A DNA stretch of 37,821 nucleotides from Thainema sp. (GCA_052168235.1 JBQLZK010000067.1:1-37821), one strand, 5' to 3'. Positions 1-37,821 are shown, counted from the stretch's first letter. Notes: a model not told the origin generated them from the letters alone. Made by a program: numbers and translations.

Positions 1-51
1 TATTCGCCTATCAAGGTGTGTCCAACATTGAGGACTTTAACCACCTCGAAG
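1..51. repeat. Terminal direct repeat, left copy (circular-assembly overlap)
   Basis: Bases 1-51 (TATTCGCCTA...CACCTCGAAG) are identical to 37771-37821, and the FtsK-like reading frame continues across the join. Confidence 0.97.
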
Positions 52-695
52 GCGTGACTAAAGCAGACTACAAGGTGTGGATTTTGGACGAGTCCCACAT
101 CGGCTTTCCCGATATGCGGAAAGAGAGCATGGTCATTGATGGCAAACCCACACAGGTGAAACGTCTATCGGATGTGATGTCGGTTGCGGCGACCTTTGGC
201 TGGCTGATCCTGTTCTGCACCCAAGCCCCCGATCGCAAGACGATTCACCGTCAGGTAGACGCCAAAATCGGCCATCGAATCGGCCTGTTGCTCCAGCGGG
301 ATAAGGATTCGGAGCTGGTCATCCAGCAGGCAGGCTGTGAGCGGTTGCTTGGCAAAGGCGATATGTTGGCCCGTCGCGGTGGAGAGGAGCCGGTGCGACT
401 GCAAGCCTACGACACATCCATCAGCGACCTGAAAGAGTGGTGCTTTCCTAAGATTGCCAAACTCACCCGCGACCAGAAACGCGATCGCACCTGTGAGTTA
501 CGCAACAAGGGCAGAACGCCTGCCTACATCATCAGCCACGTGTGGAACGTAACTGAAGGTGACGAGGGATGGTCAGCAGCACAACAGGAGTTTCTAGAGA
601 TAACTAAAGAGCTTCTAGAGCTGACCATTCAAGAACACCCTGAAAATCATCCCCCTAATAACGATTTTGGCGACAGCGGTGATTTTGCCGATTGA
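1..695 (+). CDS. FtsK/SpoIIIE-family ATPase, C-terminal part (gene starts at 36579 and wraps; about 628 aa in total)
   Basis: Walker B VWILDE, GWLILFCTQAP (cf. FtsK GIHLILATQRP), RIG, and GCERLLGKGDML (cf. GAEKLLGxGDML). Short helical C-terminal tail. In frame with 36579-37770. Confidence 0.9.
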   Translation, partial: FAYQGVSNIEDFNHLEGVTKADYKVWILDESHIGFPDMRKESMVIDGKPTQVKRLSDVMSVAATFGWLILFCTQAPDRKTIHRQVDAKIGHRIGLLLQRDKDSELVIQQAGCERLLGKGDMLARRGGEEPVRLQAYDTSISDLKEWCFPKIAKLTRDQKRDRTCELRNKGRTPAYIISHVWNVTEGDEGWSAAQQEFLEITKELLELTIQEHPENHPPNNDFGDSGDFAD

Positions 696-876
696 GTTGC
701 AATTGCAACCCTGAGTTGCAAGAAACCGCCAGAAATCAGCTCATAAGACTGTTTCAAGCTTTATCGGAGTTGCTCCGGTTTGCAACACCTCCTCTGCAAT
801 TGCTGCAACTGCATGCAAGGGGTGCAAATTCCGACCCAAAAGTCACTGGGTTGCAAGAAAAGTCGAAACGTTGCAA
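696..876. repeat. Cluster of 10 TGCAA motifs (6 as TTGCAA palindromes); candidate cis-acting protein-binding locus
   Basis: TGCAA at 698, 704, 717, 781, 795, 804, 814, 823, 852 and 872; GTTGCAAGAAA at 715 and 850. Begins right after the ATPase stop codon. Confidence 0.8.
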
Positions 877-899
877 AAGCCTTACGGAGATTAAATCTC

Positions 900-1322
900 A
901 TGCCTAAACGCAAACGCCCAGCCACAACGCGAGTCCCTGCTTTAGTCGGTATGACTCAAGGGTTTCGCCAAACCGAAGTTGTGGACATGCTTGGTGCGTC
1001 TGATTACCAAATCAGCCGTGATTGTTCCTTGTTGTGGCCGAGCCGCCAACCTCATTCTGTGCTGACCAGAAATCAAGTTCGGACGGTGTACTGCGTCACG
1101 ATGTATCGCCACCTGGAATACAGCAAAGGCCGCCAGCAAATTCCTTCTACTGAAATCCTCGACTTCATCAACAACAGTACGGATGAGCAGATCTGGGCAG
1201 TCGTTGCGCTGGCTGGTGGCTCCACTGAGGATTGCAATGCTGGCATTGAGGAAATGCTGATGAAGCGCAACCAGCGCCGTATCCAGCAAGAAACCATCAA
1301 TGTATCTAGCACCGTCGCATAG
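900..1322 (+). CDS. Hypothetical protein (140 aa), possible HTH DNA-binding protein
   Basis: ATG 900 with GGAG RBS, preferred over the track's start at 780. FRQTEVVDMLGASDYQISRD resembles an HTH. Confidence 0.65.
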   Translation: MPKRKRPATTRVPALVGMTQGFRQTEVVDMLGASDYQISRDCSLLWPSRQPHSVLTRNQVRTVYCVTMYRHLEYSKGRQQIPSTEILDFINNSTDEQIWAVVALAGGSTEDCNAGIEEMLMKRNQRRIQQETINVSSTVA

Positions 1323-1335: not shown

Positions 1336-1731
1336 ATGACCACGAACAATAACAAACCCGCTAAGACCGCAGACCAACAGGCCAGCCTAGCTCGTTCCGT
1401 CGATACCTCCAGCGCTGGCAAGATGGCGCGATCTCAGACTGCATCCAAGCCATATCGCCCTCCAGCCGTCCAGACTGAGAATCCAAATGTGAACGTAGAC
1501 GTTGAACAGTTTGAACCGGCTCAACTGGTACAAGGTGGAACTGAATTGGTTGATGCAGCCTTTGACGCTGCTGAACATGGGATGGAGAAGCGGTTCAAGG
1601 AACGCGGCCAGCAGCTCGTCAAACGCACTAACTACATGATGGCAACGCTGTTTAACGGCATGGCGGTTAAGGCTGGCAGTATCCGCAGTGCCTACATCAC
1701 TGCTCCAGATGAGGGTGAAGCCGATGAATAA
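1336..1731 (+). CDS. Hypothetical protein (131 aa) in the transfer-like operon
   Basis: ATG with AGGA RBS, 13 nt after the previous stop; its stop overlaps the next start. Confidence 0.7.
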   Translation: MTTNNNKPAKTADQQASLARSVDTSSAGKMARSQTASKPYRPPAVQTENPNVNVDVEQFEPAQLVQGGTELVDAAFDAAEHGMEKRFKERGQQLVKRTNYMMATLFNGMAVKAGSIRSAYITAPDEGEADE

Positions 1732-2095
1732 CGACATTGAGCAAATCCCTGACGAGTTTGATCCGACTCTTGCGATCGCAATTGGTCAGCACCTCGCCGA
1801 TCTTCAGTTTGATGTCGCGGAATCTAGCTATTCACAACGCCTAGACCAAAACTACAAAGGCTTTTGCCTTGCCCAGGCCAGCGATGAAGCGATGAGCCGA
1901 TACCTGGGAGAATATGTGGCCATTGTCCGACTCGACGAGCGGCTGCGGTTCATCGGTCGCACCCTCTTCTATGGGCTGCTGGTTGCGATCATTCCAGTGG
2001 GATGTGCGATCGCAGTTGGGATGAGCTTCTATTCTGCCCTGTTGCTCATTCCCGCGCTAATGGCTGGCATGTGGCTCGCCGCCGTAAATCACTGA
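1724..2095 (+). CDS. Small membrane protein (123 aa, two C-terminal TM helices)
   Basis: ATG 1724 overlaps the upstream stop, with a GAGGG RBS. Hydrophobic C-terminus LFYGLLVAIIPVGCAIAVGMSFYSALLLIPALMAGMWLAA. Confidence 0.72.
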   Translation: MNNDIEQIPDEFDPTLAIAIGQHLADLQFDVAESSYSQRLDQNYKGFCLAQASDEAMSRYLGEYVAIVRLDERLRFIGRTLFYGLLVAIIPVGCAIAVGMSFYSALLLIPALMAGMWLAAVNH

Positions 2096-2234: not shown

Positions 2235-2645
2235 ATGAACCCAATCAATATCAACATCAATCTTCCCCATGACCAGCAGCGACAGTTACCTACCTCTACT
2301 CCAGTTGTTGCAGCGCAACCGCTGGCGCGACCGTCGCAGCCGATTCAGGCTGAACTGGTGGAGCCGCATGACCAGGTCGGAGTGTTTACCGTTCCTCAAT
2401 CGGGCATCAATTGGGATGCGTTGAGAGCTGCGATCGCAGCGACCTGCTTTTTTGTAGCGCTACTTCTGCTCATTCAGTCATTCAAACCGAAGCCGAAAGA
2501 ACCCACCCTGACCCAATCTCAGGTTGACGTACTACTCCAGCGAGAGCGATCACGATGGATGGCAGAGCAGCAAGCGCTAGAATACGAGCGGCTGAATTCT
2601 GAGTATCAAGGCTTCAAGGATGGGGTGATTTACAGTCAACCGTAG
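2235..2645 (+). CDS. Single-TM membrane protein with C-terminal coiled coil (136 aa)
   Basis: GAGGA RBS; TM segment AAIAATCFFVALLLLIQSF; last gene before a terminator. Confidence 0.72.
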   Translation: MNPINININLPHDQQRQLPTSTPVVAAQPLARPSQPIQAELVEPHDQVGVFTVPQSGINWDALRAAIAATCFFVALLLLIQSFKPKPKEPTLTQSQVDVLLQRERSRWMAEQQALEYERLNSEYQGFKDGVIYSQP

Positions 2646-2678: not shown

Positions 2679-2705
2679 GCTCCGGTTAGTTGCCGGGGCT
2701 TTTTT
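2679..2705 (+). terminator. Intrinsic terminator closing the transfer-like operon
   Basis: GCTCCGGT-TAGTT-GCCGGGGC stem-loop followed by TTTTTT. Confidence 0.75.
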
Positions 2706-2907
2706 ATTATTCGTGTCGTTTCAGGTATAGCGATGTTTAGATGACGAAAATACCCTTTCGTCAGGTAAAACTCGGTAAACCTACTTTCACTGATAAAATG
2801 TTTCACGCTTTGCCTGAAGCATTGAGCAAAGCGCATTTGCCTTCCAAACCTATATTGGATGACTTTAGTCGCTTGAGTAACTTGTCTACTTTTTGAAGTA
2901 GGTTACC

Positions 2908-4107: not shown

Positions 4108-4221
4108 ACAGTTTGTTTCAGTTACAACACAATCAAATACAACACGACCAAAGTTGTCAAAGGTTTAGTGACAAGTATGGAAAACCTTTTCTCCCAAGAT
4201 AAGATCGGCTGACACTGGCTA

Positions 4222-20750: not shown

Positions 20751-22394
20751 ATGCCTTACATGCCTAAGACGAAAGCCAAGGCCCAGAACAACGAGTCACT
20801 GGAGCAGAAGCTCTGGAAGGCGGCGGATAAGCTGCGGAAGAACATCGACGCTGCCGAGTATAAACACATTGTGTTGGGGCTGATCTTCCTGAAGTACATC
20901 TCCGATGCCTTTGAGCTGTTGCACGAGAAGCTGGTGGCCGGAGAGGGAGAATACGAGGGAGCCGATCCGGAAGATCCGGATGAGTACAAGGCAGAGAATG
21001 TCTTTTTTGTGCCGGAGGTGGCGCGGTGGTCGGCATTGCAGGCGCAGGCGAAGCAGCCGACGATCGGGCAGTTGGTGGATGAGGCGATGGAGGCGATCGA
21101 GCAGGCAAACCCCAAGGCGCTTAAGGGGATTTTGCCGAAGGTGTACGGGCAGCAGAAGCTAGACCCGACCTCGCTAGGGGGACTGATCGACATGATCGGT
21201 AGCATCAACCTGGCGAAGGCGAAGGAGGAATCAAACGGGCAGATTAAGCTGGAGACGGAGCCGACGGAACCTCGGACGGAGCCGCGACAGGCGGACTTAT
21301 TGGGGCAGGTGTATGAGTACTTCCTGGGGGAGTTTGCCTTAGCAGAGGGAAAGAAGGGGGGCCAGTTCTACACGCCGGAAAGCGTGGTGCGGGTGCTGGT
21401 GGAGATGCTGGAGCCGTACCAGGGGCGGGTGTTTGACCCGTGCTGTGGGTCAGGGGGCATGTTCGTTCAGAGTGAGAAGTTTGTCAGCCATCACCAGGGG
21501 CGGCTGGATGATATTTCGATTTACGGGCAGGAGAGCAACGAGACCACCTACAAGCTGTGCCGGATGAACCTGGCGATTCGGGGGATTGATGGCTCGAATA
21601 TTCGCTGGAACCCGGAGGGATCGTTTTTGAATGATGCCCACAAGGATTTGAAGGCGGACTTTGTGATCGCGAATCCGCCGTTTAATGACAGCGACTGGGG
21701 CGGCGATCTGCTGCGAAAGGATGGCCGCTGGCAGTATGGGGTGCCGCCGGTGGGCAATGCCAACTTTGGCTGGGTGCAGCACTTCTTGTATCACCTGGCT
21801 CCGACGGGGGCGGCGGGGTTTGTGTTGTCGAATGGGTCGCTGTCGTCGAATACGGGGGGCGAGGGGGAAATTCGTCAGGCGCTGGTGGAGGCGGATTTGG
21901 TGGACTGCATTGTGATGCTGCCGACGCAGTTGTTTTACAACACGGGGATTCCGGCCTGTCTGTGGTTTTTGAGTCGGTATAAGAACGGCAATAAGAACCG
22001 GAACCGCAAGGGGGAGGTGTTGTTTATTGATGCCTCGGAGCTGGGCTATATGGTCAACCGCCGCAATCGGGCGTTTGCGGAGGAGGACATTCAGCAGATT
22101 GCGGGCACGTACCACGAGTGGAAGCGAGACGGTGGCGACTATGAAGACATCAAGGGGTTTTGTAAGTCGGCGACGCTGGCGGAGATTAAGAAGCACAATT
22201 TTGTGCTGACGCCGGGGCGCTATGTGGGCATTCCGGATGAGGAGGATGACGGAATACCGTTTGAGGACAAGATGAGTGATTTGGTGATGACGCTGGGAGA
22301 ACAGATGGCAGAGAGTCGCCAGTTGGATGAGGAAATCAAGCGACAATTACTCAAAGTAGGCTTTGTTGTCAGTGATGAGTTACCAAATGAATAA
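20751..22394 (+). CDS. hsdM: Type I R-M methyltransferase subunit (start 20751 or 20760)
   Basis: [23 protein letters not shown] (motif I), ANPPFN (motif IV). Confidence 0.96.
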
Positions 22395-22425
22395 AGGGTG
22401 CTAGATGATATACGGAGGTGGAACC

Positions 22426-22665
22426 ATGACGTTACAGGAAATTCTTCAGGCGGTGGATGAGCTATCGGTAGATGAGCAAGCATCGCTTTTAAATGCGCTC
22501 CAGGAGAAGCTGACGCAAGCTTCTCAATCTGGCTTAAATGGGGAAACGTTTTGGAAAATGACCTTACGGTTTCGAGAACGGATGGAACGAGAAGGCATCG
22601 AATTCACTGATGAGGACTTTGCTAATTTGCGCGATCGCAGTCCGGGACGGGAGGTTGTGCTTTGA
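22426..22665 (+). CDS. vapB: Putative antitoxin of the PIN toxin
   Basis: GGAGG RBS, 79 aa, C-terminal LRDRSPGREV, 4-nt overlap with the PIN gene. Confidence 0.72.
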   Translation: MTLQEILQAVDELSVDEQASLLNALQEKLTQASQSGLNGETFWKMTLRFRERMEREGIEFTDEDFANLRDRSPGREVVL

Positions 22666-23090
22666 CAGCACTATTTCTCTTGGATACTAATATCATTTCT
22701 GAAATCAATAAGAAGGCTCCCAACGACTCTGTAGTTGCAAAGATGGATTTGTATGAGGGCAAAGTTGCAACTGCATCTGTTGTTGTGCACGAGTTGCTTT
22801 ATGGTGTGTTGCGGATGCCGCCTGAATCAGCAAAACGGAGGTTTTTGTTGGACTATCTAACTGAATTGCCATCAAAGTTGACTGTTTTGGACTATGACTT
22901 AGACGCTGCCCGCTGGCACGCGGAAGAACGGGCAAGGCTGTCTAAGATTGGCAAAACACCTGCATTTGTGGATGGTCAAATTGCTAGCATTGCGGTTTGC
23001 AACGGGTTGAGGCTAGTGACTCGTAATGGGGCAGATTTTCAGGACTTTGAAGGTCTGACCATTGCAAACTGGTTTGAAGAAGAGAGTTGA
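22662..23090 (+). CDS. vapC: PIN-domain ribonuclease toxin
   Basis: LLDTNIISE, ELLYG, DGQIASIA, LVTRN..DF. Confidence 0.93.
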   Translation: MTALFLLDTNIISEINKKAPNDSVVAKMDLYEGKVATASVVVHELLYGVLRMPPESAKRRFLLDYLTELPSKLTVLDYDLDAARWHAEERARLSKIGKTPAFVDGQIASIAVCNGLRLVTRNGADFQDFEGLTIANWFEEES

Positions 23091-23092
23091 TC

Positions 23093-23182
23093 ATGTCGAA
23101 GATGGCGGCGCAGAGGTCGGAGGCAGAGGCGCTGGACAAAGAGGTTAAGGCGCAGTTGGCGAAGGTGGGGTTTGAGGTATGA
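23093..23182 (+). pseudogene. Relic second copy of the hsdM 3' end
   Basis: MSKMAAQRSEAEALDKEVKAQLAKVGFEV aligns to the HsdM tail [27 protein letters not shown]; its stop overlaps the hsdS start (ATGA). Confidence 0.75.
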
Positions 23183-24486
23183 GTGATGAGCCAACTAAGT
23201 ATTCACCGCTAGGCATATTGCCCCATGATTGGGATGTTAAGCCACTCAAAAGTTTATGTACAAAAATTGGTTCTGGAGCAACACCTAGAGGCGGTAAAGA
23301 TGTTTATCTAGACGAGCGAGTTTCTCATGCATTAATCCGTAGTCAACATGTTTTCGATCATTATTTTGACGAAACAGGCTTAGTTTATATATCTGAAGAA
23401 CACGTCCAAGAGCTGAGAAACGTTGAGGTTCAATCACAAGACTTACTGTTAAATATTACAGGTGACGGTATTACATTTTCTCGCGCTTGTATGGTGCCGG
23501 ATAGAATTCTACCTGCATGTGTGAATCAGCACGTTTCAATAATCCGCACAGATCCAAATATTTGTCTTCCAGGATATTTGTTAGGGTACCTGACTCTTCC
23601 GGGAATTAAGACATATATCGAGTCTTTCAATTCTGGGGGAAGTCGGCGAGCTATCACTAAAGGCAATATTGAATCATTCGAGATACCCTTGCCTCCTCTG
23701 AATGTTCAGAAAGAGATTGCTCAAACAATACAAAGCCTGAATAGCAAAATCGAAAACCTGTGCCGCCAGAACGAGACGCTAGATGCGATCGCACATTCTC
23801 TCTTCAAACATTGGTTCGTCGATTTCGAGTTCCCCAACGCCGACGGCAAGCCCTACAAGTCATCTGGTGGGGAGATGGAACCGTCAGAGATAGGCGAAAT
23901 CCCCACAGGCTGGCATGTTGGCAACTTAGGCGATGTCGTCAAAGTCAATGCTGAAAGTATCAGTAAAGGCTTTACACACAAAGAGATTGAGTATGTAGAT
24001 ATTTCTTCTGTAGGAGTTGGAGTTCTGGAAGGCACTACTTCCTATCAACTCAAAAAGGCTCCTAGTCGAGCAAGAAGGCTAGTCAAGCATGGTGATGTAA
24101 TTTGGTCAGGGGTCAGACCTAATCGGAAATCTTATCTCTTTATTTCCCATCCCCCAGACCATCTAGTTGTTTCAACTGGATTTATAACTTTGACACCGGA
24201 TTTAATTCCCTCGTCTTATTTATACAGTTGGGTAACAACTGATTCTTTTGTGGAGTATTTGACCTTTAATGCTTCTGGCAGTGCATACCCAGCGGTAAAA
24301 GCAGAACATTTTGAAATTGCAGCAATTTTGCTGCCTGATAAATTCACGTTGAGCAGATTTCATGTACTTGTCGATCCAATGCGCGAGAAGATTCACCAAA
24401 ATTCACGGCAAGTTCAAATCCTGACTCAAACCCGCGATGTGCTTCTCCCTAAACTCATGAGCGGCAAACTCCGCATCAAATCATAA
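23179..24486 (+). CDS. hsdS: Type I R-M specificity subunit
   Basis: Two TRDs; IPLPPLNVQKEIA; SLFKHWFVDF; GEIPTGW; RDVLLPKLMSG. Confidence 0.95.
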   Translation: MSDEPTKYSPLGILPHDWDVKPLKSLCTKIGSGATPRGGKDVYLDERVSHALIRSQHVFDHYFDETGLVYISEEHVQELRNVEVQSQDLLLNITGDGITFSRACMVPDRILPACVNQHVSIIRTDPNICLPGYLLGYLTLPGIKTYIESFNSGGSRRAITKGNIESFEIPLPPLNVQKEIAQTIQSLNSKIENLCRQNETLDAIAHSLFKHWFVDFEFPNADGKPYKSSGGEMEPSEIGEIPTGWHVGNLGDVVKVNAESISKGFTHKEIEYVDISSVGVGVLEGTTSYQLKKAPSRARRLVKHGDVIWSGVRPNRKSYLFISHPPDHLVVSTGFITLTPDLIPSSYLYSWVTTDSFVEYLTFNASGSAYPAVKAEHFEIAAILLPDKFTLSRFHVLVDPMREKIHQNSRQVQILTQTRDVLLPKLMSGKLRIKS

Positions 24487-24523
24487 TCGTTTTTGGCTTT
24501 AAATACTCTCTATCTGCACTTTC

Positions 24524-25243
24524 TTATGAAGATTGCTGCTGTCCGTATACAGACCAAATATTATCAAACTTTGCTTTGAAATCTGAAAGGAATGATAATC
24601 CTTCTATCGAATTTCTCGTTGCCACATAAGTAAGCTCAGGGCCAGGATGATCAGATGAAATACCATAAAATCCAAAATACAAGGACTTTTCGTCAATAAT
24701 CATGCAATGAAATGTAGGTGGAAAATCATAAAAACCAAATGATATTTTTGATATCCGACCTTTTGCTTGAAGTGTCTTTAAGTTATGTATTACTCCCTGT
24801 ATTTCAAAAGATAGTCGATTTTGCTCTTCTTTTTCAAATGGAAGCTTGGCTGTATCTAATTTATTCGGGTCTCTAAGTAACACCTTGAGATGTTCAATCT
24901 TAACTTTACTTTCACGTATGGCCGGGAAGTATAATACCGCAGTACTAGCAAAAATTTTGACTGATCTATGCTCTCGCTCTTCTATAAGCAGGTTAATTAT
25001 TTCCTGCACAAAGCTATTTGAAGCTTTAAGTCCTACTTGATCTTTCTCTGTAAGCTTCTCATCCAAAAAACGAAATATTGTTAGTAGCACAAGGGCGATC
25101 ATCATTAATGAGCCTCGCGCACTCATGAAACTAGCAACTTGAGGATTGAATATCGATAAAAACTGTAGAAAGAAGAATGAAAATAGGATGAGGTAAATTA
25201 CCTGCTTTTCTATTCGTTTCCAAAGCGTCTTCAGTTCTGTCAT
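24524..25243 (-). CDS. Two-TM protein with C-terminal alpha/beta domain (DUF5919/PLD-fold-like), inserted antisense between hsdS and hsdR
   Basis: Two N-terminal hydrophobic helices; KVLLRDP..FYDFPPTFHCMIIDEKSLYFGFY; AT-rich relative to hsdM/hsdR. Confidence 0.65.
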   Translation of the reverse strand: MTELKTLWKRIEKQVIYLILFSFFFLQFLSIFNPQVASFMSARGSLMMIALVLLTIFRFLDEKLTEKDQVGLKASNSFVQEIINLLIEEREHRSVKIFASTAVLYFPAIRESKVKIEHLKVLLRDPNKLDTAKLPFEKEEQNRLSFEIQGVIHNLKTLQAKGRISKISFGFYDFPPTFHCMIIDEKSLYFGFYGISSDHPGPELTYVATRNSIEGLSFLSDFKAKFDNIWSVYGQQQSS

Positions 25244-25442
25244 GATTCAACCTTAAATATCACATGATTATCTTATCCGTAAAATAAATATAGACCGTAG
25301 GCTAAGAAACCTCAGCTTTAAAGTGACAAAGGAAAATGCTTTACTCCTTCAAGACACTTTAGCGTCGATAACTTTATCAACAACTCCGGATAAATCACTT
25401 GTTTCTGGGAATCATAAATAGGTGATTACCCCTCTCGACCTC

Positions 25443-28400
25443 ATGAGCAAATCCACCACTGAAGACCAAATCGAACAATACAACCTCGAACTGCTCGATA
25501 CCCTTGGCTATCGCTACACCCACGGAGCCACCATTGCCCCAGACGACACCGACATTGGCAACAGCTTTCGAGCCAGCGACAGCTCCAGTGGTGCTTACCT
25601 CAGCATTGAACCCCGCCAAAGCTTCAGCGACGTACTGCTTAAAGACCGCCTCACCGCTGCCATTAGCCGCATCAACCCCCACATTCCCGCCGACATCCGC
25701 AACCAGGCTCAGCGCGAACTGCAAAACATCGCCAGCCCCGACCTGATCACCAACAACGAAACCTTTCACCGCTACCTCACCGAAGGCATCACCGTCGAAT
25801 ACACCTCTGTCAGATCTGGGGGCGAAACCAAAGGCGAACAGCTCTGGCTGATTGACTGGAACACCCCCGACAACAACGAATTCCTCGCGGTAAATCAGTT
25901 CACCATCATCGAAGATAACCACAACCGCCGCCCCGATATCATCCTCTTCATTAACGGGCTGCCCCTGGTCGTCATCGAACTGAAAAACGCCGCCGATGCC
26001 AAAGCCGATCTGCACGCCGCCTGGAACCAGCTCCAAACCTATAAACGCGAGATTCCCAGCCTCTTCACCTACAACGCCCTGCTGGTGATCTCCGATGGCA
26101 TCTCCGCCCGTGTCGGTTCGCTCTCCGCTCCCTATAGCCGCTTCAGCCAGTGGAAACGAAAACTTCCCGACGGCAGCATCGACAACAATCCCGATACCAA
26201 CGAACTCGAAATTCTCGTGCAGGGAATACTCAATAAGCATACTCTGCTCGACCTGATCCGCCACTTCACCGTCTTTGAAAAAGTCAAAACCGTCGATCCC
26301 AAAACCGATGTTGTAAACCTGCAAACTATCAAAAAGATCGGAGCCTATCACCAGTACTACGCCGTTAATAAAGCCGTCGAAACCGTCATCGCCGCCACCC
26401 ACTCCAACCATCGCGGCGGAGTCGTTTGGCATACCCAAGGCAGCGGCAAATCCCTCTCAATGGTCTTCCTCAGCGGCAAATTGGTTCTCGCCCTCAATAA
26501 CCCCACCCTCGTTATCCTCACCGATCGCAACGACCTCGACGATCAGCTCTTCGATACCTTCGCTGGATGTCGCCAGCTCCTGCGCCAAGACCCCCAACAG
26601 GCCAACGACCGCACCGCCGTGCGTGACCTGCTCAACATCGCCTCCGGCGGCATCGTCTTTACCACCCTTCAGAAATTCGCCCCCGAAGAAGGCGAAACCC
26701 TCTATCCCAAAATCTGCGATCGCACCAACATCGTTGTCCTCGCCGACGAAGCCCACCGCAGTCAGTACGGCTTCAAAGCCAAGCAAGTTACGCTCAAAGA
26801 CGAAGACGGCAACGAAATCGGTAAGCAGACCCGCTATGGTTTCGCCAAATACATCCGCGATGCGCTGCCCAATGCCACCTTCGTCGGCTTCACTGGCACT
26901 CCCGTCGAGCAAACCGACAAAAACACTCCCGAGATCTTTGGCGGCTACATCGACATCTACGACATCGCCCAGGCCGTGGAAGACGGAGCCACCGTCCCCA
27001 TCTACTATGAAAGTCGTCTCGTCAAAGTAGACCTCGACGAGCAAGGGCGAGAACTGCTAGAAGAACTGGACGAAGATCTCAGCTTTGAAGACCTCAGCGC
27101 TACCCAGCAGGCCAAAGCAAAGCAAACCCAGCTCGAAGCAATTGTTGGCTCCTCCAAGCGCCTTCAAAACATCGCCGAAGACATCGTCACCCACTTTGAA
27201 AAGCGCCAAACCGCCAATCGCGGCAAAGGCATGATCGTCACCCTCAGCCGCCAGATTGCCGCCAACCTCTACGACAACATCATCCAACTGCGCCCCAACT
27301 GGCACAGCGACGATAAGAACACAGGCAAAATCAAAGTCGTCATGACCGCCAGCGCTTCTGACGAAGGCAATCTCGTCCAGCACCACACCAGCAAAAAAGA
27401 CCGCCAGATCCTGGCTCAACGGCTCAAAGACCCCGACAACGAGCTGGAACTCGTCATCGTCTGCGACATGTGGCTGACCGGGTTCGATGCCCCCTGTCTG
27501 CACACCATGTACATCGATAAACCTATGAAAGGCCACAACCTGATGCAGGCGATTGCTCGTATCAACCGCGTCTACTTTGAAAAGCAGGGCGGCTTAATTG
27601 TGGACTATCTGGGGGTTGCCACCGAACTCAAAAATGCTCTGTCCTTCTACTCCAAGAGCGGTGGCAAAGGCGATCTCACCCTTGACCAAGAAATTGCCGT
27701 TGGCCTGATGCTGACCAAACTAGAAGTCGTCGAAGGCATCATGGAAGGCTTCAACTATCAGCCGTATTTCACAGCCAGCACCGGCGACAAACTGACCCTG
27801 CTCAAATCAGCCACCAACTATGTCGCCGATCCCCAACGCAAAGACCGCTTCCTTGATGCCGTTACCGCTCTCTCTAAAACCTATGCTCTCATTGCTCACC
27901 ATCCAGAAGCCGTCACCAAAGCCGAAGAAATCTCCTTCTTCCAAGCCATCCAAGCCAGTCTCCGCAAACTCGAACCGAGCGACGGTAGCCTCAGCAATAC
28001 CGAAATCGAAACCGCCATTCGTCAAGTCGTTGATCAGGCGTTAGTTTCCGACACCGTCATCAATATCTTCGACGAGGCCGGTCTAAATAATCCAGATGTC
28101 TCCGTCATCTCCGACGAATTCCTGGAAGAAGTCGAAGGCATGGAGCATAAAAACCTCGCCGTGGAAATGCTCAAACGCCTGCTGCGTGACGAAATCAAAG
28201 CCCAGCGCCGCACCAACATTGTCCAAAGCCGCAAACTAACCGACATGTTAGAAGATGCGCTGCGTCGCTATAAAAATCAGGTGATCAGCGTAACCGACGT
28301 ACTGCAAGAACTGATTGAAATCAGCAAAGACGTGCAATCCGCTAAGCAGCGCGGCGAAGAACTCGGACTCGAACCCTATGAACTCGCCTTCTACGATGCC

Positions 28401-28673
28401 TTAGCCCAAAACCAGAGCGCCCATGAGGTCATGGGCCAAGACAAACTGCGAGAACTTGCGATCGCGCTTGTGGGTCGCGTCCGCAAAAATGCGTCTATCG
28501 ACTGGAACCTGAAAGAAAGCGTCCGCGCTCGCATGAAAGTTATGGTGAAACGGCTGCTCCGGCAATATGGTTATCCCCCCGACATGCAGGCCCTCGCGAT
28601 TGAGCTTGTGTTGGAGCAGGCTAAGGTATTCACTGAATTTGAAGTGGAAACGAGTCAGGCTAGTTCTTCGTGA
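25443..28673 (+). CDS. hsdR: Type I R-M restriction subunit
   Basis: RPDIILFINGLPLVVIELK nuclease motif, HTQGSGKS, DEAHRSQYG, FTGTP, MWLTGFD, QAIARINR. ATG 25443 preferred over GTG 25422. Confidence 0.96.
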   Translation: MSKSTTEDQIEQYNLELLDTLGYRYTHGATIAPDDTDIGNSFRASDSSSGAYLSIEPRQSFSDVLLKDRLTAAISRINPHIPADIRNQAQRELQNIASPDLITNNETFHRYLTEGITVEYTSVRSGGETKGEQLWLIDWNTPDNNEFLAVNQFTIIEDNHNRRPDIILFINGLPLVVIELKNAADAKADLHAAWNQLQTYKREIPSLFTYNALLVISDGISARVGSLSAPYSRFSQWKRKLPDGSIDNNPDTNELEILVQGILNKHTLLDLIRHFTVFEKVKTVDPKTDVVNLQTIKKIGAYHQYYAVNKAVETVIAATHSNHRGGVVWHTQGSGKSLSMVFLSGKLVLALNNPTLVILTDRNDLDDQLFDTFAGCRQLLRQDPQQANDRTAVRDLLNIASGGIVFTTLQKFAPEEGETLYPKICDRTNIVVLADEAHRSQYGFKAKQVTLKDEDGNEIGKQTRYGFAKYIRDALPNATFVGFTGTPVEQTDKNTPEIFGGYIDIYDIAQAVEDGATVPIYYESRLVKVDLDEQGRELLEELDEDLSFEDLSATQQAKAKQTQLEAIVGSSKRLQNIAEDIVTHFEKRQTANRGKGMIVTLSRQIAANLYDNIIQLRPNWHSDDKNTGKIKVVMTASASDEGNLVQHHTSKKDRQILAQRLKDPDNELELVIVCDMWLTGFDAPCLHTMYIDKPMKGHNLMQAIARINRVYFEKQGGLIVDYLGVATELKNALSFYSKSGGKGDLTLDQEIAVGLMLTKLEVVEGIMEGFNYQPYFTASTGDKLTLLKSATNYVADPQRKDRFLDAVTALSKTYALIAHHPEAVTKAEEISFFQAIQASLRKLEPSDGSLSNTEIETAIRQVVDQALVSDTVINIFDEAGLNNPDVSVISDEFLEEVEGMEHKNLAVEMLKRLLRDEIKAQRRTNIVQSRKLTDMLEDALRRYKNQVISVTDVLQELIEISKDVQSAKQRGEELGLEPYELAFYDALAQNQSAHEVMGQDKLRELAIALVGRVRKNASIDWNLKESVRARMKVMVKRLLRQYGYPPDMQALAIELVLEQAKVFTEFEVETSQASSS

Positions 28674-29560: not shown

Positions 29561-31675
29561 ATGACTAAAACCAACCATCCAACCAATATCCTGGAAGTTC
29601 TTGTGCTCTATTTTGCAGAGCTAGAAACACAGTACTCTCCCAAACAGGCTCAGAGTATCCAAAATGAAACCCGTAGTGCCTTATTCCGGTTTGTCGCTCC
29701 ACATCTAGGCTTAAAACGCGATCCTAATGCTCGTCGAATGACAAAAGCCGAAATTCAACAGGCTGAAGCAGTTCTGGCTCAAGCCTCGGTCCGCTGGTTA
29801 CCCAAACTCATGCAGTTTGCTGAACGGTCGTTCCGCGAGCAGCAAACACCCAAATCGGTTCAGCAAACCTATGGGACACGAATTCAACAGTTACTCAATA
29901 GTGCTGAAAAGCAGATTTGGTATCCTGGCAACCGCATCCAGCACAATAAGTTCGCCCATGAGTGTGCTGATCCATTGCCACGTAAGTTTGGTCGTCCAAC
30001 TGATTATTTGCTGGTTCCTGAGAAGAAGGGATTGCAGATCAAAGAATACAGCTTGCAGCCCCATGAGATTTCTCCCCAGCTGCAAGCTCAACTGGATCAG
30101 TTTTTAGCATTCATTTGCGATCGCAACTACGTTGACCGCGTCATCAAACCGATTGATCCAGAACGAGCTGATGACCACGTCAATGCGATCCGTCTATTCC
30201 TCGGCTGGTGGAAGCATGTTAAACAGCCATCCCTAACCGTGAACGAACTCAGCCTAGATTTGATTGTTCCAAAGCTCACGGATGCTGATCTAGACGATCT
30301 AACGCCATCACAGCGGAAGCAGAAGTGGCGGCAGGTCAATCGAGAGTTGAAACAGTGGATTCTTGACTACTTCAATTTTCTGGAAGTGTCAGCCAAGTCC
30401 TATTCTCCCCGTACACGAGAGAATAAGCTGACTCAAATTCTCAAGGTGGCTTACTTTCAATATGCTTCTGAAGTGGAGCATTATTCAGAATATGAGGCGA
30501 TTCCGCTGTTTGGTGCGCTGCGGGGATTACAAAAGGACTATCGAGACCAGGTTAAGGAATGGACTCGAAATCGGCGGTTTGTCGCCAATCAAGTTAAGAA
30601 ATGGCCGGACTTACCGGAGGGAAAAACCGCGCTAGCTGTCCTCAAGGAAGGCTTATTTGAGCATCTGCGACGACGATGTCGTCCCCGGACGGCCAATGCG
30701 GTGCTCCATCAGCCACTACCCCAAGCTCAATTTTTAGCCACCTTTTTACTCTGGGCCGAGATGCTGCTCGAACCCCCTCGACGGCAGCAAGAGCTGCGCA
30801 CCCGCCGTATTGCACTGGCTTGCAATATCAAACGACCGGAGAGCGTACCGCCTGATGGGCTTTACCATCCGCTACCACCGGAGGAACTCCGACAACGAAA
30901 TCAGGATGGTCTGATCGTCGATAACTATCTTTGTCACGTCTATACACACAATGGACGGCACTATCCCGATGGGGTTTGGATCAAACAAGTGCGCAAGTAC
31001 AAAACTCATAAGCATCATGGTCCACAGGATATTGTGATCCACAATCGACCCCTGGGCGATGGCTTGCAGCTTTACGACTATATCGAGCGTTATCTCTATG
31101 GCGACTGGTATAGCGGCAACCTCAAGAACTCCATCACCTATGACTGGTGGGATAGTGATCTCCAAAATCAACGCGGAAAGTGGCTGACTAAAGGGCTCTT
31201 AGAGTTTGAACCGCTGACACATCCGCTCACACAAGAAGCGCAAGACTGGCCGTGGACGTGGATGTTTTGCATTCCGAGGACAGGAAAGCCGCATACGCGC
31301 GATAGTCTGTCGGATCTATTCGATCGATCCAGCCATCAGTGGATTGGCAAGCGGATTACGCCTCATACACTCCGCTATATCTGGGCGACCTGGGCATTTC
31401 AGGTAGGAATGGCTGACGCGGAAATACATTCCTTGGCCTATGCGATGGGTTCAACCTATGACACCTTACGCAAATGGTATGAACGGTCAACGCCAGAGGA
31501 CAAGCGCCGTCCCATTGAGGAAGCCATCGATCTATATTTCTATGACGTGCTGGGGCAATATCAAGCGGACGAGTTGAAAGATGCCAGTCCGAAGTTAAAG
31601 CAGGCATTGCGCTTGATCCAGCAATTATCGTCGTCGGAGCGACTGATGCTGACATCGCTAATTCAGGCCAGTTAA
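29561..31675 (+). CDS. Large (704 aa) divergent tyrosine recombinase-family protein
   Basis: PRRQQELR (R), YKTHKHHG (K), PHTLRYIWAT (HxxR), AMGSTYDTLRKWY (Ser at the His/Trp position; Tyr nucleophile); AGGAGG RBS. Confidence 0.78.
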   Translation: MTKTNHPTNILEVLVLYFAELETQYSPKQAQSIQNETRSALFRFVAPHLGLKRDPNARRMTKAEIQQAEAVLAQASVRWLPKLMQFAERSFREQQTPKSVQQTYGTRIQQLLNSAEKQIWYPGNRIQHNKFAHECADPLPRKFGRPTDYLLVPEKKGLQIKEYSLQPHEISPQLQAQLDQFLAFICDRNYVDRVIKPIDPERADDHVNAIRLFLGWWKHVKQPSLTVNELSLDLIVPKLTDADLDDLTPSQRKQKWRQVNRELKQWILDYFNFLEVSAKSYSPRTRENKLTQILKVAYFQYASEVEHYSEYEAIPLFGALRGLQKDYRDQVKEWTRNRRFVANQVKKWPDLPEGKTALAVLKEGLFEHLRRRCRPRTANAVLHQPLPQAQFLATFLLWAEMLLEPPRRQQELRTRRIALACNIKRPESVPPDGLYHPLPPEELRQRNQDGLIVDNYLCHVYTHNGRHYPDGVWIKQVRKYKTHKHHGPQDIVIHNRPLGDGLQLYDYIERYLYGDWYSGNLKNSITYDWWDSDLQNQRGKWLTKGLLEFEPLTHPLTQEAQDWPWTWMFCIPRTGKPHTRDSLSDLFDRSSHQWIGKRITPHTLRYIWATWAFQVGMADAEIHSLAYAMGSTYDTLRKWYERSTPEDKRRPIEEAIDLYFYDVLGQYQADELKDASPKLKQALRLIQQLSSSERLMLTSLIQAS

Positions 31676-35031: not shown

Positions 35032-35205
35032 TTAATTATTAGCCTCAGCTTTTTTATTTCGAGGTGTCCAGTCCTCCATGCCTCTCTCGGCTAGGTATGC
35101 CAAAAGATTGCTGACAGTACGTCCTTCTTCTTCTGCCCTTACTTTGAGTCGTTCTGACAGCTCATCGGGGACTGTCGTAAACAGTTTCTTAGCCACATCA
35201 TTCAT
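35032..35205 (-). CDS. 57-aa ribbon-helix-helix (Arc/CopG-like) regulator, not in the ORF track
   Basis: MNDVAKKLFTTVPDELSERLKVRAEEEGRTVSNLLAYLAERGMEDWTPRNKKAEANN; GGAGG upstream; divergent from the transfer-like operon. Confidence 0.8.
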   Translation of the reverse strand: MNDVAKKLFTTVPDELSERLKVRAEEEGRTVSNLLAYLAERGMEDWTPRNKKAEANN

Positions 35206-35237
35206 AAATTACTGCCTTACCTCCAAATAGTAGCTTT

Positions 35238-35301
35238 AGGTAGCCAATATACAAATAAAAGTATCTTCTGGGTTGCTAAATGGCTACCTTATGGCTACCA
35301 T
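35238..35301. promoter_or_regulatory. Divergent promoter with GGTAGCCA/TGGCTACC operator repeats
   Basis: GGTAGCCA 35239, GGTTGCTA 35271, TGGCTACC 35281 and 35292; the last copy overlaps a -10-like TACCAT at 35296. Confidence 0.55.
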
Positions 35302-35362
35302 TTTAACAAGATTTGCAACAATCGCAGATTTTGCACATATCGCTACATGAGGAAACTGATTT

Positions 35363-36031
35363 ATGGCAACAGCCGCACCCCCTCAAATGAACTGGCGCGT
35401 TGGTCAAACGGGGATCTCGTCAAACGGAGCCGCCCGCGTCAATGATGAATTTCGCGTTGATATCAATAAGCTGGGTCGCCTCACCCCGTCTGAGGTTCGC
35501 GCTCAATCGCAACTAGCTAAGGATCTGCGTCAGCAGGTCGTTTTGGCGAAGCAATATAAGACCGCTAGCGAGGACGTGATTAAATCCAAAGTCACGATTG
35601 AAGAGCTGCGTACTGACCTGCTCGCTAAAGGATTAGAAGGTGCGAAAGCCGTCGATAACCTGGTCAGCCGCGCCCAGTTGCAAACCGGACAATACATGCA
35701 ATCACTGCAAACCACTGCTCACGCAACTCAGTTGGGCTTAAGTGCGATCGCAGAAAGCGGTCAGATGGAACGCGACACACTCACAACCAAATATCAGTTA
35801 AAAGCGCAACAGGCTCGACAGCTTCAAGCCTCAAAGCTCCAGCAGATGGGAACCAGTATGGGCAAGGAAACCCAGATGAAGCTGGATGACGCTCGGCAGA
35901 AAGCGGCAGCTAAGGAGCAACAGAAACAGGAAGAAATTGCGCTGAAGCGCTACATCCGAGCCGATGACTATACGCCCAACACAGGCAAAGCTCCAGGCCC
36001 GTTCCAGCGCATTCTCAATCTGGTGGCATAG
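35363..36031 (+). CDS. Helical/coiled-coil protein (222 aa), first gene of the transfer-like operon
   Basis: GAGG RBS; Q/A/K-rich helical sequence. Confidence 0.75.
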   Translation: MATAAPPQMNWRVGQTGISSNGAARVNDEFRVDINKLGRLTPSEVRAQSQLAKDLRQQVVLAKQYKTASEDVIKSKVTIEELRTDLLAKGLEGAKAVDNLVSRAQLQTGQYMQSLQTTAHATQLGLSAIAESGQMERDTLTTKYQLKAQQARQLQASKLQQMGTSMGKETQMKLDDARQKAAAKEQQKQEEIALKRYIRADDYTPNTGKAPGPFQRILNLVA

Positions 36032-36042
36032 GGTTAGTTGCT

Positions 36043-36612
36043 ATGTATACCCACGAGCATAATCCTGAACTAGAGCGACTTAGAGCGTTGCAGGAATCTG
36101 CGATCGCAACTCCTCCCCATCCTGAAGTTCCGACTTGGAACTACCACACGATCAACCGAGCGGGTTCGATGTTCGGTCTGCTGTTCGGCAGTTGGATGTT
36201 TCTCACGTTCCTGGCTCGGCTTCTGCCTGACTTTGCGTTCATCTACCTGATTCTGACTGGAGCCGGATTACTGGCCTGTTTCTACGTTGCGATCGCAGGT
36301 CATCCCAACCTGTTCACGCTAGTTGGAATCACAGCCTTTGGCGTCATCATCGCCACGCTGCTGGCCAGTTGGGATCTACTTCTGGGGCTGTTCTATTACC
36401 AAGGCAGTCCCATTTGGAAATTCTTCATTGTTGCGATGGGGTTTGTCTTGAGCGTGGGTCTGTTTCGATTGTTCTTCAACATTCGACGACCCAAAGCGCA
36501 GCAACAAACTCCGGTCGAATCGCAGCAAACCCAATCCGAACAAGCCTATGACGCTGCCTGGCAAGCGTATTTGCAACAATGGACTTCTCAATCCACCGAC
36601 AATCCATCTTGA
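36043..36612 (+). CDS. Four-TM membrane protein (189 aa)
   Basis: Four hydrophobic segments; 3' end overlaps the start of the FtsK-like gene. Confidence 0.78.
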   Translation: MYTHEHNPELERLRALQESAIATPPHPEVPTWNYHTINRAGSMFGLLFGSWMFLTFLARLLPDFAFIYLILTGAGLLACFYVAIAGHPNLFTLVGITAFGVIIATLLASWDLLLGLFYYQGSPIWKFFIVAMGFVLSVGLFRLFFNIRRPKAQQQTPVESQQTQSEQAYDAAWQAYLQQWTSQSTDNPS

Positions 36613-37821
36613 TCTATCAAGCAGCGGGTGTGTTCGGACTGCTAATTGCCTCCTGGGGACGGCTTGATCCAACCGTCGTCACCCCGGCTGGTCAGCGGTT
36701 GCCGCATTGGGCGGTAACTAACCGTGCTCAAATTGCAGCCATCTATGCACCGGATAGCTGGTCAAAAATGGCTGGCATCATGATTGCGATCGCAGGATTC
36801 GGTAAGGCATACCAAACCAGCAAGATAGCCGAAAAAGACGAGCGGGAGCTGTTGCGCCAGCTCAATCATGAGTTGCGACTGCGAGCGGTTCGAGAGCAGG
36901 AAGAACTCCAGCGGCAACTGCTGGCCAGCTCCGAAATGCTCAAGATTGCTCAAGTGGTGGAGAACCTGCGAGCTGAAGAGAAAGGTGATGAGGAGATTGC
37001 CGCGATTCTCGGCATTGACGTAGCTGAACTGAAAGCGCTGGGTGCTCCCCAGCCGGAAGCGTTACCCGCTCAAGCCGTGTCACGGGAAAATGACACATCG
37101 GAGCCACGGATACCGAATCCGCCCGACGATCCAACCGTGCATGGACTTTTGCAGGCGACGCTGAAGGCACTTCACAAGGCAAATTACTATGCCGACTATG
37201 TGACCTGCTTCAAAGGGCCATCGTTCATCCAGTTCATCCTGGAGATGCGAGACCCGAAAAAACTACCAGAAGCCATTGATAGAACCCCATCAATCGTCCA
37301 GGCCAGTTTGCACCTGCCCAAACTGCCCATGTCAGACAACGAGCATGGTTTCTTATCCTTGTCGCTGGCACGACCCGACCGGGAGCTGCGGAAGCTGGCA
37401 GACGAGATTGACGATATCCCAGTCCCTAAGCGTCCATCGCTGTTCCTGGGTGTTGACCTAAAAGAAATCAGGCACTACATCCATCTGGACGGTAAAGAAA
37501 TGGAGGCCGTCTTAATCGGTGGTCTGCCCCGTGTGGCTGGCAAGACCAACCTGATCCGGCAGATGATCGGCTTCGCCGCCAAAAACTACTCATACCGTCA
37601 CATTCAGTTTCTCGTCTTTGACGGCAAAGGAACTGAGCTGAACCCGCTCAAAAATTCGCCCTATCTGGCTGAATGGCCATCGACCGCTAACCGCTTGGTC
37701 GGGCATTCAGAAGAGGACGCAGAATTGCAGCTTCAGTGGGTCGAGCAGGACATCGAAAACCGTCGCAGCCTATTCGCCTATCAAGGTGTGTCCAACATTG
37801 AGGACTTTAACCACCTCGAAG
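36579..37821 (+). CDS. FtsK/SpoIIIE-family ATPase, N-terminal part (continues across the junction to 695); not in the ORF track
   Basis: Open from ATG 36579 (MDFSIHRQSILIYQAAGVFGLLIASW..): two hydrophobic segments, coiled coil, GPSF, LFLGVDL, Walker A-like LIGGLPRVAGKTN, FLVFDGKGTEL (cf. IDPK..EL), DIENRRSLF. Confidence 0.88.
   Translation, partial: MDFSIHRQSILIYQAAGVFGLLIASWGRLDPTVVTPAGQRLPHWAVTNRAQIAAIYAPDSWSKMAGIMIAIAGFGKAYQTSKIAEKDERELLRQLNHELRLRAVREQEELQRQLLASSEMLKIAQVVENLRAEEKGDEEIAAILGIDVAELKALGAPQPEALPAQAVSRENDTSEPRIPNPPDDPTVHGLLQATLKALHKANYYADYVTCFKGPSFIQFILEMRDPKKLPEAIDRTPSIVQASLHLPKLPMSDNEHGFLSLSLARPDRELRKLADEIDDIPVPKRPSLFLGVDLKEIRHYIHLDGKEMEAVLIGGLPRVAGKTNLIRQMIGFAAKNYSYRHIQFLVFDGKGTELNPLKNSPYLAEWPSTANRLVGHSEEDAELQLQWVEQDIENRRSLFAYQGVSNIEDFNHLE
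37771..37821. repeat. Terminal direct repeat, right copy (circular-assembly overlap)
   Basis: Identical to bases 1-51. Confidence 0.97.

Follow-up and report, generated by a model that had tools for sequence, protein, structure and literature searches.

A conserved FtsK-type ATPase cassette on a cyanobacterial plasmid and its possible role in double-stranded DNA transfer

A 37,821-nt stretch of Thainema sp. DNA (GCA_052168235.1, JBQLZK010000067.1:1-37821), analyzed at its full length and referred to here as the window, carries a conserved, portable gene cassette organized around an FtsK-type motor ATPase, a candidate cis array of short repeats, three membrane proteins and a divergently encoded regulator. 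By analogy with plasmids of Streptomyces, this unit may be a plasmid-borne module for transfer or spread of double-stranded DNA (dsDNA), a reading to which we assign a probability of roughly 0.37. The cassette data, a layout resembling that of plasmid pIJ101, and the literature place it first among the explanations weighed below.

Results

A co-oriented unit spans the plasmid junction

The window begins and ends with the same 51 nt (positions 1-51 and 37771-37821). The replicon therefore closes to a 37,770-bp circle, bearing out the initial annotation of this DNA as an apparently complete circular plasmid. On the circularized sequence, one co-oriented unit runs from 35363 to 2645, as that annotation had proposed, and comprises g1, g2, the ATPase gene, a repeat array, g5, g6, g7 and g8, followed by a terminator. 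The ATPase gene is split by the window ends. Its N-terminal 414 aa (36579..37821, plus strand) include two predicted transmembrane (TM) helices, a long stalk helix, an alpha domain and the P-loop, and its C-terminal part (1..695, plus strand) includes Walker B, the motif LLGKGDML and a three-helix tail. Circularization joins both parts, as had been anticipated, into a single open reading frame (ORF; 36579 to 695) of 628 aa. A 628-aa database protein, P0001, is uninterrupted and 97% identical over the first 414 aa of the ATPase, and contig L003, described below, carries an uninterrupted 624-aa copy (5535-7409). Because these independent assemblies hold the ATPase intact, the junction-spanning ORF is no assembly artefact.

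Two genes precede the ATPase gene, both on the plus strand. The product of g1 (35363..36031) is a soluble protein of 222 aa, rich in Q, A and K, that may form a coiled coil. That of g2 (36043..36612) is an integral membrane protein of 189 aa with about four TM segments, and its coding region overlaps the ATPase start by 34 nt at the 3' end. Hydropathy segments of g2 lie at residues 43-71, 66-84, 90-108 and 127-145; four or five hydrophobic segments agree with the 4-TM protein first described. Four further plus-strand genes follow the array: g5 (900..1322; 140 aa, with a basic N-terminus, a putative helix-turn-helix (HTH) and a long C-terminal helix), g6 (1336..1731; 131 aa, soluble), g7 (1688..2095; 135 aa, with a C-terminal TM hairpin) and g8 (2235..2645; 136 aa, single-pass, with its TM segment at residues 62-80). 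By hydropathy, the g7 hairpin and the one g8 segment fit the several small membrane proteins initially noted. Overlapping pairs are g2 with the ATPase gene and g6, at its end, with g7. A terminator-like hairpin and T-run occupies 2679..2709 on the plus strand (hairpin 2679-2699, with an 8-pair stem containing 6 G-C, then TTTTTTATTA) and begins 34 nt past the g8 stop, where the unit had been predicted to end. This terminator is argued from its position after g8 because such sites in the region are not more numerous than in shuffled sequence (4 versus 3.2).

On the minus strand, 35032..35205 encodes a 57-aa ribbon-helix-helix (RHH) protein (Pfam RHH_5, PF07878, 8e-14; Arc-like repressor PHROG, 7e-5). 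The divergent RHH gene reported earlier is thus real, and its product is a probable repressor of the operon. The intervening promoter/operator region (35206..35362) contains the 12-mer ATTTGCAACAAT, with TTGCAA at 35313. A second copy of this 12-mer, at 36569-36580, overlaps the start codon of the ATPase gene. Elements at -35 and -10 in this region were read by inspection only, and a consensus promoter scan made no call.

The unit is a discrete cassette under purifying selection

A scan of 185,579 species genomes with a four-sequence alignment found two loci among 67 candidate stretches, one of which is a true relative. This locus, L003, is a 9.8-kb contig of a metagenome-assembled genome in which g1-g8 and the repeat array are present with 77-82% DNA identity to the window. 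The alignment covers window positions 35378-2093 at 81.7% and 2162-2633 at 77%. Upstream, L003 3172-3227 aligns at 78.6% to a 56-nt promoter stretch of the window (35313-35368); one 168-column piece of about 160 nt matches further upstream, and nothing else aligns. The unit genes are under purifying selection. Protein identity and the ratio of nonsynonymous to synonymous substitution rates were 96% and 0.05 for g1, 87% and 0.14 for g2, 95% and 0.05 for the ATPase, 82% and 0.06 for g6, 89% and 0.09 for g7, and 81% and 0.12 for g8. For g5, which is 65% identical, no ratio is given because synonymous sites are saturated.

An RHH_5 gene occupies the same divergent position in L003, its product being 31% identical over 42 aa to the window protein. 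The 530-aa and 131-aa proteins encoded next to the unit in the window have no homologue at the corresponding places of L003. Because the flanks beyond the RHH gene are unrelated, the unit behaves as a discrete cassette residing on different backbones. An IS630-like element (L003 3228-4354, with DDE_3 and HTH ORFs at 3249-4279) lies at the extreme 5' end of g1 in that copy.

The plasmid has a GC content of 46%, and the octamer GCGATCGC, known as HIP1 and a marker of cyanobacteria, occurs in it 25 times versus 0.57 expected from shuffles. Ten of these 25 copies lie inside the unit, which is therefore no recent import from another phylum. The Thainema/Leptolyngbyaceae lineage is presumably filamentous.

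A palindromic array follows the ATPase gene

One base after the ATPase stop codon begins a 204-nt non-coding array (696..899) with ten TGCAA motifs, six of which form the full palindrome TTGCAA. The six lie between 697 and 876, and the four further TGCAA are spaced at 9-10 nt. A perfect 14-bp palindrome, GTTGCAATTGCAAC, sits at 696-709. TTGCAA is not in overall excess on the plasmid (21 copies versus 19.5 by chance). Its local density was reached in none of 500 first-order Markov simulations, for which the maximum was three rather than six copies per 205-nt window. L003 keeps the array, with six TGCAA in 207 nt. The repeat cluster of the initial annotation is therefore both clustered beyond all 500 simulations and conserved. 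A 71-aa ORF across it (692-907) was considered as a gene and ruled out; because the 2-nt and 10-nt alignment gaps relative to L003 are not multiples of three, the array is non-coding. Upstream of g1, the conserved stretch contains one more TTGCAA. From its sequence, the array is a candidate cis site of a clt-like, centromere-like or operator type.

The gene downstream, g5, had been assigned a start at 780, now replaced by the ATG at 900. Sixteen homologues share 53-100% identity; 14 are 140 aa long, the others 125 and 139 aa. Their contigs reach 150 kb, several being 26-50 kb; two of the 16 are named Thainema sp. (Leptolyngbyaceae), and two contigs (37,084 and 17,997 nt) are equal in size to contigs that carry the ATPase clusters. 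An AlphaFold2 model of g5 from a two-sequence input (predicted local distance difference test, pLDDT, 76.9) has helices at 24-31 and 35-45, three more, and a 31-residue terminal helix. Foldseek returned nothing for it at E<=0.001. The best weak matches (E>=0.07) were DNA-bound MerR-family regulators such as SoxR (E 0.11, probability 0.92), and the RacA-DNA complex matched at E 0.36 with TMt 0.64 over 68 columns. The gene called HTH-like at the outset thus stands with its start moved; because these MerR and RacA fold matches are all weak, the HTH itself is tentative.

The ATPase resembles FtsK in sequence and predicted fold

Pfam assigns the ATPase to FtsK_SpoIIIE (PF01580; 3.2e-9 for the N-terminal part and 1.3e-12 for P0001) and to no other family. 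A PDB sequence search with a profile of P0001 and its relative P0002 ranked FtsK (1e-7) above TcpA (0.009) and EccCb1 (0.3). NCBIfam scores to EccCb/EssC were 22-23 bits against cut-offs of 346-778. The AlphaFold2 model, built from 104 aligned relatives (mean pLDDT 83.7), consists of a predicted TM helix at residues 4-24, a short beta-rich loop, a second predicted TM helix at 59-71, one continuous long helix at 75-132 followed by a low-confidence linker, a compact alpha+beta motor at 185-545 (pLDDT >90), and three helices at 554-609 (pLDDT 66-76). With Foldseek against the PDB, the motors of Escherichia coli and Pseudomonas aeruginosa FtsK came top (E 8e-25, TMt 0.75, about 397 columns), followed by TcpA (about 1e-15, TMt 0.60), EccC/EssC (E 1.7e-11 to 1e-7) and then HerA. 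On whether the ATPase groups with ordinary coupling proteins, a question raised at the outset, FtsK_SpoIIIE is its only Pfam family and no VirD4/TrwB chain was among the Foldseek matches listed, so that it does not resemble coupling proteins of the VirD4 type. The original description of a membrane-anchored FtsK/SpoIIIE ATPase is thus upheld as to family. Because both N-terminal helices are weakly hydrophobic, with Kyte-Doolittle peaks of 1.5 and about 1.0, the membrane anchor counts as a prediction. A complex prediction for ATPase residues 1-135 with g2, run without controls, scored 0.01 against a mark of 0.32 and gives no verdict either way.

Catalytic residues K322 (Walker A) and D427-E428 (Walker B) are conserved across the 104 relatives; the LLGxGD motif is conserved too. 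Walker B reads VWILDES, and the further motif reads LLGKGDML. In a phmmer search, the gamma domain of E. coli FtsK (its final 75 residues) hit 38 sequences, P0001 and P0002 not among them. The C-terminal tail of about 70 aa is conserved in P0001-P0004, with three predicted helices and no wing strands. Pfam at E<=10 found nothing for this tail and nothing for the helix pair of the linker. TraB recognizes its cis TRS repeats through a winged helix. The linker stretch encoded at 36951-37058 (residues ~125-160; EEKGDEEIAAILG...) is strictly conserved with two short helices predicted, and EEKGDEEIAAILG... weakly matches a PDB chain named 'CAP repeat' (6.4e-5).

The ATPase belongs to a distinct FtsK-like family

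HMMER against 1.84 billion representatives recovered 6063 proteins at E<=0.001 and just four at E<=1e-30. The nearest relatives (P0003-P0013 and P0017) are 23-37% identical where aligned. For the most part they share a layout of long helical linker, alpha-like domain and motor, and most have N-terminal hydrophobic helices. Searches by tblastn with P0001, P0003 and P0005 against PLSDB, and with P0001 against phages, gave nothing above 32% identity, and the genomic contexts of the Crocosphaera and Pseudanabaena matches are unrelated to the unit. PLSDB holds 311 records with FtsK-type matches, mostly from Ralstonia and Sinorhizobium; blastn of the unit DNA against it gave zero matches.

A quick maximum-likelihood tree of the motor domain was built from 83 rows, comprising the 60 best hits, 18 gamma-bearing proteins and length-filtered references; rows with a motor-profile match of <200 positions were left out. 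The window ATPase and P0002 sit on a long branch (1.1 substitutions/column) within a 13-row clade (Shimodaira-Hasegawa-like approximate likelihood ratio test, SH-aLRT, 100). This clade nests in one of 18 rows (SH-aLRT 96) that includes plasmid FtsK-like proteins of Nostoc PCC 7120 and Pseudanabaena and is separate from a 26-row gamma-bearing FtsK clade (SH-aLRT 95), from TcpA/TcpB and from pIJ101 Tra. On its sequence, the ATPase belongs to a distinct FtsK-like family.

Deep branching was unstable once three more actinobacterial proteins were added. In the expanded tree the window clade groups with the pCC7120beta protein, and support for their common ancestor drops to SH-aLRT 75. A Streptomyces protein, p1, that appeared as sister to the window clade in the quick tree (SH-aLRT 99) was dropped as not robust, because a constrained tree placing it with other actinobacterial Tra proteins scores higher (log-likelihood, lnL, +15.3). 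Constraining three actinobacterial Tra proteins with the window clade, a group named after the tree had been seen and one that involves long branches, gave lnL +25.4 over the free tree (approximately unbiased test, p-AU, 0.78). The control constraint joining TcpA/TcpB to the window clade gave lnL +11.2 (p-AU 0.63). Pairwise, the ATPase is 31% identical over 98 aa (E 2e-6) to the FtsK-like protein of a 4.4-kb Streptomyces plasmid (L004), with a shared GGLPxxGKT loop. The loop of the L004 copy reads GGLPGYGKT and resembles the unusual one of the window ATPase. Nineteen actinobacterial plasmids, from Streptomyces, Nocardia, Corynebacterium and Bifidobacterium, encode an FtsK-like protein, and about half of these plasmids are 4-6 kb.

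No relaxase or type IV secretion family is recognized

Family scans covered 107 listed ORFs (106 of at least 60 aa in six frames plus the 5'-open form of the C-terminal ATPase part), the 57-aa RHH ORF and the g5 reading from 900 with Pfam, and 23 proteins with NCBIfam. No relaxase (HUH, MOB), Rep_trans, VirB4, VirD4 or pilin family was found among the 107 ORFs by Pfam or among the 23 proteins by NCBIfam, in agreement with the initial failure to recognize a relaxase, VirB4 or pilin. The 530-aa and 704-aa proteins, named at the time as possible relaxases, matched no relaxase family.

The 704-aa protein (29561-31675), about 4 kb from the unit, is tyrosine-recombinase-like, with an H-T-L-R ... Y segment at its C-terminus and a weak integrase PHROG match. 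In the ESM Atlas it falls with cyanobacterial 'putative integrase' clusters (score 0.99). It shows no similarity to TcpM, and neither it nor the 530-aa protein gave anything significant against PDB sequences. Its family is dominated by cyanobacteria, measures about 650-700 aa and ends in HTLRY ... WY, the second conserved histidine seemingly replaced; an N-terminal part of about 500 aa precedes the recombinase-like C-terminus. The 530-aa protein, probably a Rep, has only an HTH and a sub-threshold (below 0.9) HTH_36 lead in the ESM Atlas.

Comparison with known systems

The initial annotation had likened the unit to the TraB systems of Streptomyces, in which dsDNA conjugation involves clt, spd and kil-kor genes (PMC4447253). 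In those systems unprocessed dsDNA moves without a relaxase, TraB binds the 8-bp clt repeats, which are needed in cis, and three to seven small spd genes, often overlapping within operons, encode proteins that lie in the membrane or bind peptidoglycan. The parallel holds in architecture. As in pIJ101 and pSVH1, a single FtsK-superfamily protein is the only transfer-type ATPase, with relaxase and type IV secretion system (T4SS) not recognized; repeats, here a candidate cis region, are found where the ATPase gene ends; small, partly overlapping genes encode membrane proteins of no known family; a small repressor gene is divergent, a likeness of position only; and the host is likely filamentous. 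The gene order of pIJ101 (L006) is divergent korA, then tra, spdA, spdB and kilB. The parallel fails in pairwise similarity, accessory families, regulator type and repeat type. The window regulator is RHH, whereas those of TraB systems (TraR/KorA) are GntR; the window repeats are palindromic TTGCAA hexamers, whereas theirs are direct 8-mers; a DUF2637/SpdB-type protein is lacking and g1 and g2 precede the ATPase gene; and the window plasmid belongs to a diderm cyanobacterium, whereas theirs belong to mycelial actinobacteria. By tblastn against pIJ101, g2, g7 and g8 have no homology to SpdA, SpdB or KilB, and g1, g2 and g5-g8 match no family in Pfam, NCBIfam, PHROGs or PADLOC, which tells against homology to TraB systems. 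We regard the parallel as analogy, not homology.

Chromosomal FtsK/SpoIIIE gives the best match in sequence and structure, and has an N-terminal membrane anchor and linker in common with the window ATPase, whose anchor is predicted. The latter differs in having two weak TM helices rather than four, in lacking the gamma (KOPS/XerD) domain, in falling outside the gamma-bearing clade and in being plasmid-borne within an operon of orphan membrane proteins. EccC/EssC proteins of type VII secretion carry two or three tandem ATPase domains, in contrast to one with an FtsK-like alpha domain here, and act with partner membrane proteins on WXG100 substrates.

Relaxase-free FtsK-type transfer is described beyond Streptomyces, for example with TraC/TraD/TraG of Enterococcus faecium pELF2 (PMC13492992). 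That 2026 source discusses minimal units, from several phyla, in which an FtsK-type motor is paired with varying membrane partners; cyanobacteria are not named in its available part. In the diderm Thermus thermophilus, TdtA mediates transjugation, with the donor pushing DNA and recipient competence pulling it (PMC5365140). Going by these descriptions, the likeness to the window unit is one of concept, an FtsK/HerA-type motor with few integral membrane proteins and no nickase. They differ from it in gene content, with two ATPases and a rhomboid-like protein in pELF2; TdtA is encoded on an integrative and conjugative element.

On plasmid pCC7120beta (L007/L009), too, an FtsK-like ATPase, which has an alpha domain, is encoded among a series of small membrane proteins. 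It differs in that its ATPase has no TM segment, its cluster includes an M23 peptidase and the plasmid encodes a MOBP relaxase; by tblastn, no neighbor gene there resembles g1, g2 or g5-g8. The locus (170515-180347) holds a 725-aa FtsK-like protein amid about eight small predicted membrane proteins and the M23 peptidase, all co-oriented. A scan of 12 proteins revealed no VirB4-type family, and the MOBP relaxase lies about 25 kb away. Similar loci are listed on 11 further plasmids of filamentous cyanobacteria, mostly Nostocales. The pCC7120beta-type cluster may be a second FtsK-centred envelope machine on such plasmids.

Other genes of the plasmid

Pfam and PADLOC scans identified a ParA-type partition pair (17464-18494), a type I restriction-modification system (hsdM, hsdS and hsdR; 20751-28673) and, elsewhere on the plasmid, a STAND NTPase with a TPR protein, an HNH/PtuB-like nuclease and a glycosyltransferase. 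Between hsdM and hsdS lie a nested 86-aa ORF and a PIN-domain gene (22405-23090). The sole backbone part with DNA matches in PLSDB is hsdR (Picosynechococcus, 75%). A 1713-aa protein (4688-9829) with DUF4114, PPC and leishmanolysin-like regions and a C-terminal CdiA-CT RNase-A domain is polymorphic-toxin-like, and the next ORF (10178-11350) encodes a WYL/CARF-like protein (PADLOC 6.7e-37). Two loci appear to be remnants: a BT1/MFS transporter seemingly split in two ORFs of 239 and 146 aa (14626-16070), and a 182-aa tyrosine recombinase with a catalytic domain only (16547-17095).

Discussion

How a dsDNA transfer or spread module of this composition might work can be outlined. The FtsK-type motor would act as a hexamer, tethered to the cytoplasmic membrane by its two N-terminal helices and long stalk. 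It would be loaded onto the plasmid at the TTGCAA array through its C-terminal three-helix tail, g5 or both, and would pump unprocessed double-stranded plasmid DNA through a membrane assembly with g2, g7 and g8. The DNA could pass across the septum into a neighboring cell of the filament, or leave the donor for uptake by a recipient in a push-pull manner like that of Thermus. The divergent RHH protein would keep the operon repressed. The hexamer, the repeat-binding protein, the protein complex, RHH repression and DNA transfer are each only inferred.

Several findings weigh against a transfer module. Cyanobacteria are diderm, and the unit has no peptidoglycan hydrolase and no outer-membrane component. 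BLASTP of the ATPase against pIJ101 Tra gave no alignment better than E 2.5, and an affinity with actinobacterial Tra proteins, permitted and slightly favored by the tree constraints, is indistinguishable from one with TcpA. The ATPase family is small, consisting of two 90%-identity clusters of 18 and 1 members. Its P-loop, GGLPRVAGKT, is non-canonical, being one residue longer than GxxxxGK[ST]. Palindromic hexamers typify the operators or centromeres of dimeric regulators, unlike the direct 8-mers of clt, and the ATPase tail and g5 are unproven, putative DNA binders only. Because the IS630-like element parts the promoter from g1-g3, the L003 copy may be silent. Because the 704-aa protein is tyrosine-recombinase-like, an unconventional enzyme could process the plasmid DNA.

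This last point leads to the strongest alternative, which we nevertheless consider unlikely: the ATPase would be a TcpA-like type IV coupling protein of a relaxase-dependent single-stranded DNA system, with the 704-aa or 530-aa protein as an unrecognized or atypical processing enzyme and a T4SS encoded elsewhere in the cell or, in unrecognizable form, by g2, g7 and g8; the plasmid would then be mobilizable. TcpA, the coupling protein of the MPF_FA (mating-pair formation) system of Clostridium perfringens plasmid pCW3, is an FtsK-family protein dedicated to plasmid transfer. It ranks second in Foldseek, matches the ATPase by BLASTP at 5e-6 and, with TcpB, can be joined to the window clade in a tree that is not rejected. 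In the free trees that clade also sits with the pCC7120beta protein, whose plasmid encodes the MOBP relaxase, and the H-x-x-R ... Y C-terminus of the 704-aa protein is of recombinase type. The pCW3 relaxase TcpM resembles tyrosine recombinases; its record says only 'MobM family relaxase'. Against this, the 704-aa protein is unlike TcpM, lies outside the unit and has no counterpart in the 9.8 kb of L003. The motor retains an alpha domain like that of FtsK, and its structural fit to FtsK exceeds that to TcpA. The TcpM relaxase, VirB4-like ATPase, peptidoglycan hydrolase and further Tcp proteins of pCW3 are unrecognized in the window. VirB4, given as the one ubiquitous T4SS protein (PMC4027160), was not found in the 107 listed ORFs.

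Ranked after it, and decidedly doubtful, is a role in plasmid maintenance, in which an FtsK paralogue at the septum or membrane would clear or segregate plasmid copies when cells divide, g5 bound to the array would serve as a centromere or RacA-like tether, and the unit might help a recombinase to resolve multimers. FtsK paralogues are common on plasmids and chromids, as the PLSDB records indicate; short palindromes arrayed ahead of a small DNA-binding gene typify centromeres and operators; RacA-DNA is the best small structural match of g5; and tyrosine recombinases are present on the plasmid. There is also the precedent of pIJ101 SpdA2, described as binding a palindrome and affecting stability, not transfer (PMC4170104). 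However, the plasmid already has its ParA-type pair, the ATPase has no FtsK gamma domain, three conserved, dedicated membrane proteins would be unexpected for intracellular segregation, and, at 38 kb, the plasmid would probably not require septal clearance.

That the unit moves no DNA, and serves instead for FtsK/EssC-like protein export (for example of the 1713-aa toxin) or as an anti-phage defense module, is highly improbable: significant EccC/EssC structural matches, weak NCBIfam EccCb/EssC scores, a PADLOC SspH match through the FtsK domain (2.5e-15), the richness of the plasmid in defense and conflict genes, and a Pseudanabaena relative whose neighbor is a P-loop NTPase fold protein and whose surroundings do not look like transfer all point that way, but only one ATPase domain is present, together with an FtsK alpha domain, and the protein has neither an FHA domain nor tandem ATPase domains, the unit holds no WXG100- or LXG-type family, the toxin gene belongs to another transcription unit past an oppositely oriented glycosyltransferase gene, and the accessory proteins match no PADLOC model.

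The transfer or spread reading can be framed more boldly. Leptolyngbya-like cyanobacteria may host a family of plasmids of about 37-50 kb that move as dsDNA by means of a single FtsK-type pump, which would load at palindromic repeats and use three orphan membrane proteins. Such a system of conjugation or filament spread, needing neither relaxase nor T4SS, would be the first in a diderm phototroph and would have an origin separate from that of actinobacterial TraB; in this full form the proposal is speculative and somewhat unlikely. A 2013 phylogenomic survey confines TraB-type dsDNA transfer to Actinobacteria (PMC3548315), and according to another source the sole conjugation machinery described for cyanobacteria is the MPF_C type IV system (PMC4027160). 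The literature searched held no report of an FtsK-only transfer module in cyanobacteria. Our searches turned up no earlier description of the ATPase family, of the accessory genes or of the cis array; the principle of an FtsK-type motor with small membrane proteins is known.

Typing tools label relaxase-free plasmids 'non-mobilizable', and PLSDB does so for pIJ101 and for 17 of 19 small actinobacterial plasmids. If the unit does transfer dsDNA, it would account for the spread of relaxase-free cyanobacterial plasmids and add a diderm phototroph to the organisms with translocase-only transfer. The unit would also offer a compact, genetically testable system of eight genes, and possibly a gene-delivery tool for filamentous cyanobacteria. 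Should it instead prove to be a segregation or coupling device, the cassette would still define an FtsK-like family that is both new and conserved and that comes with a defined cis site.

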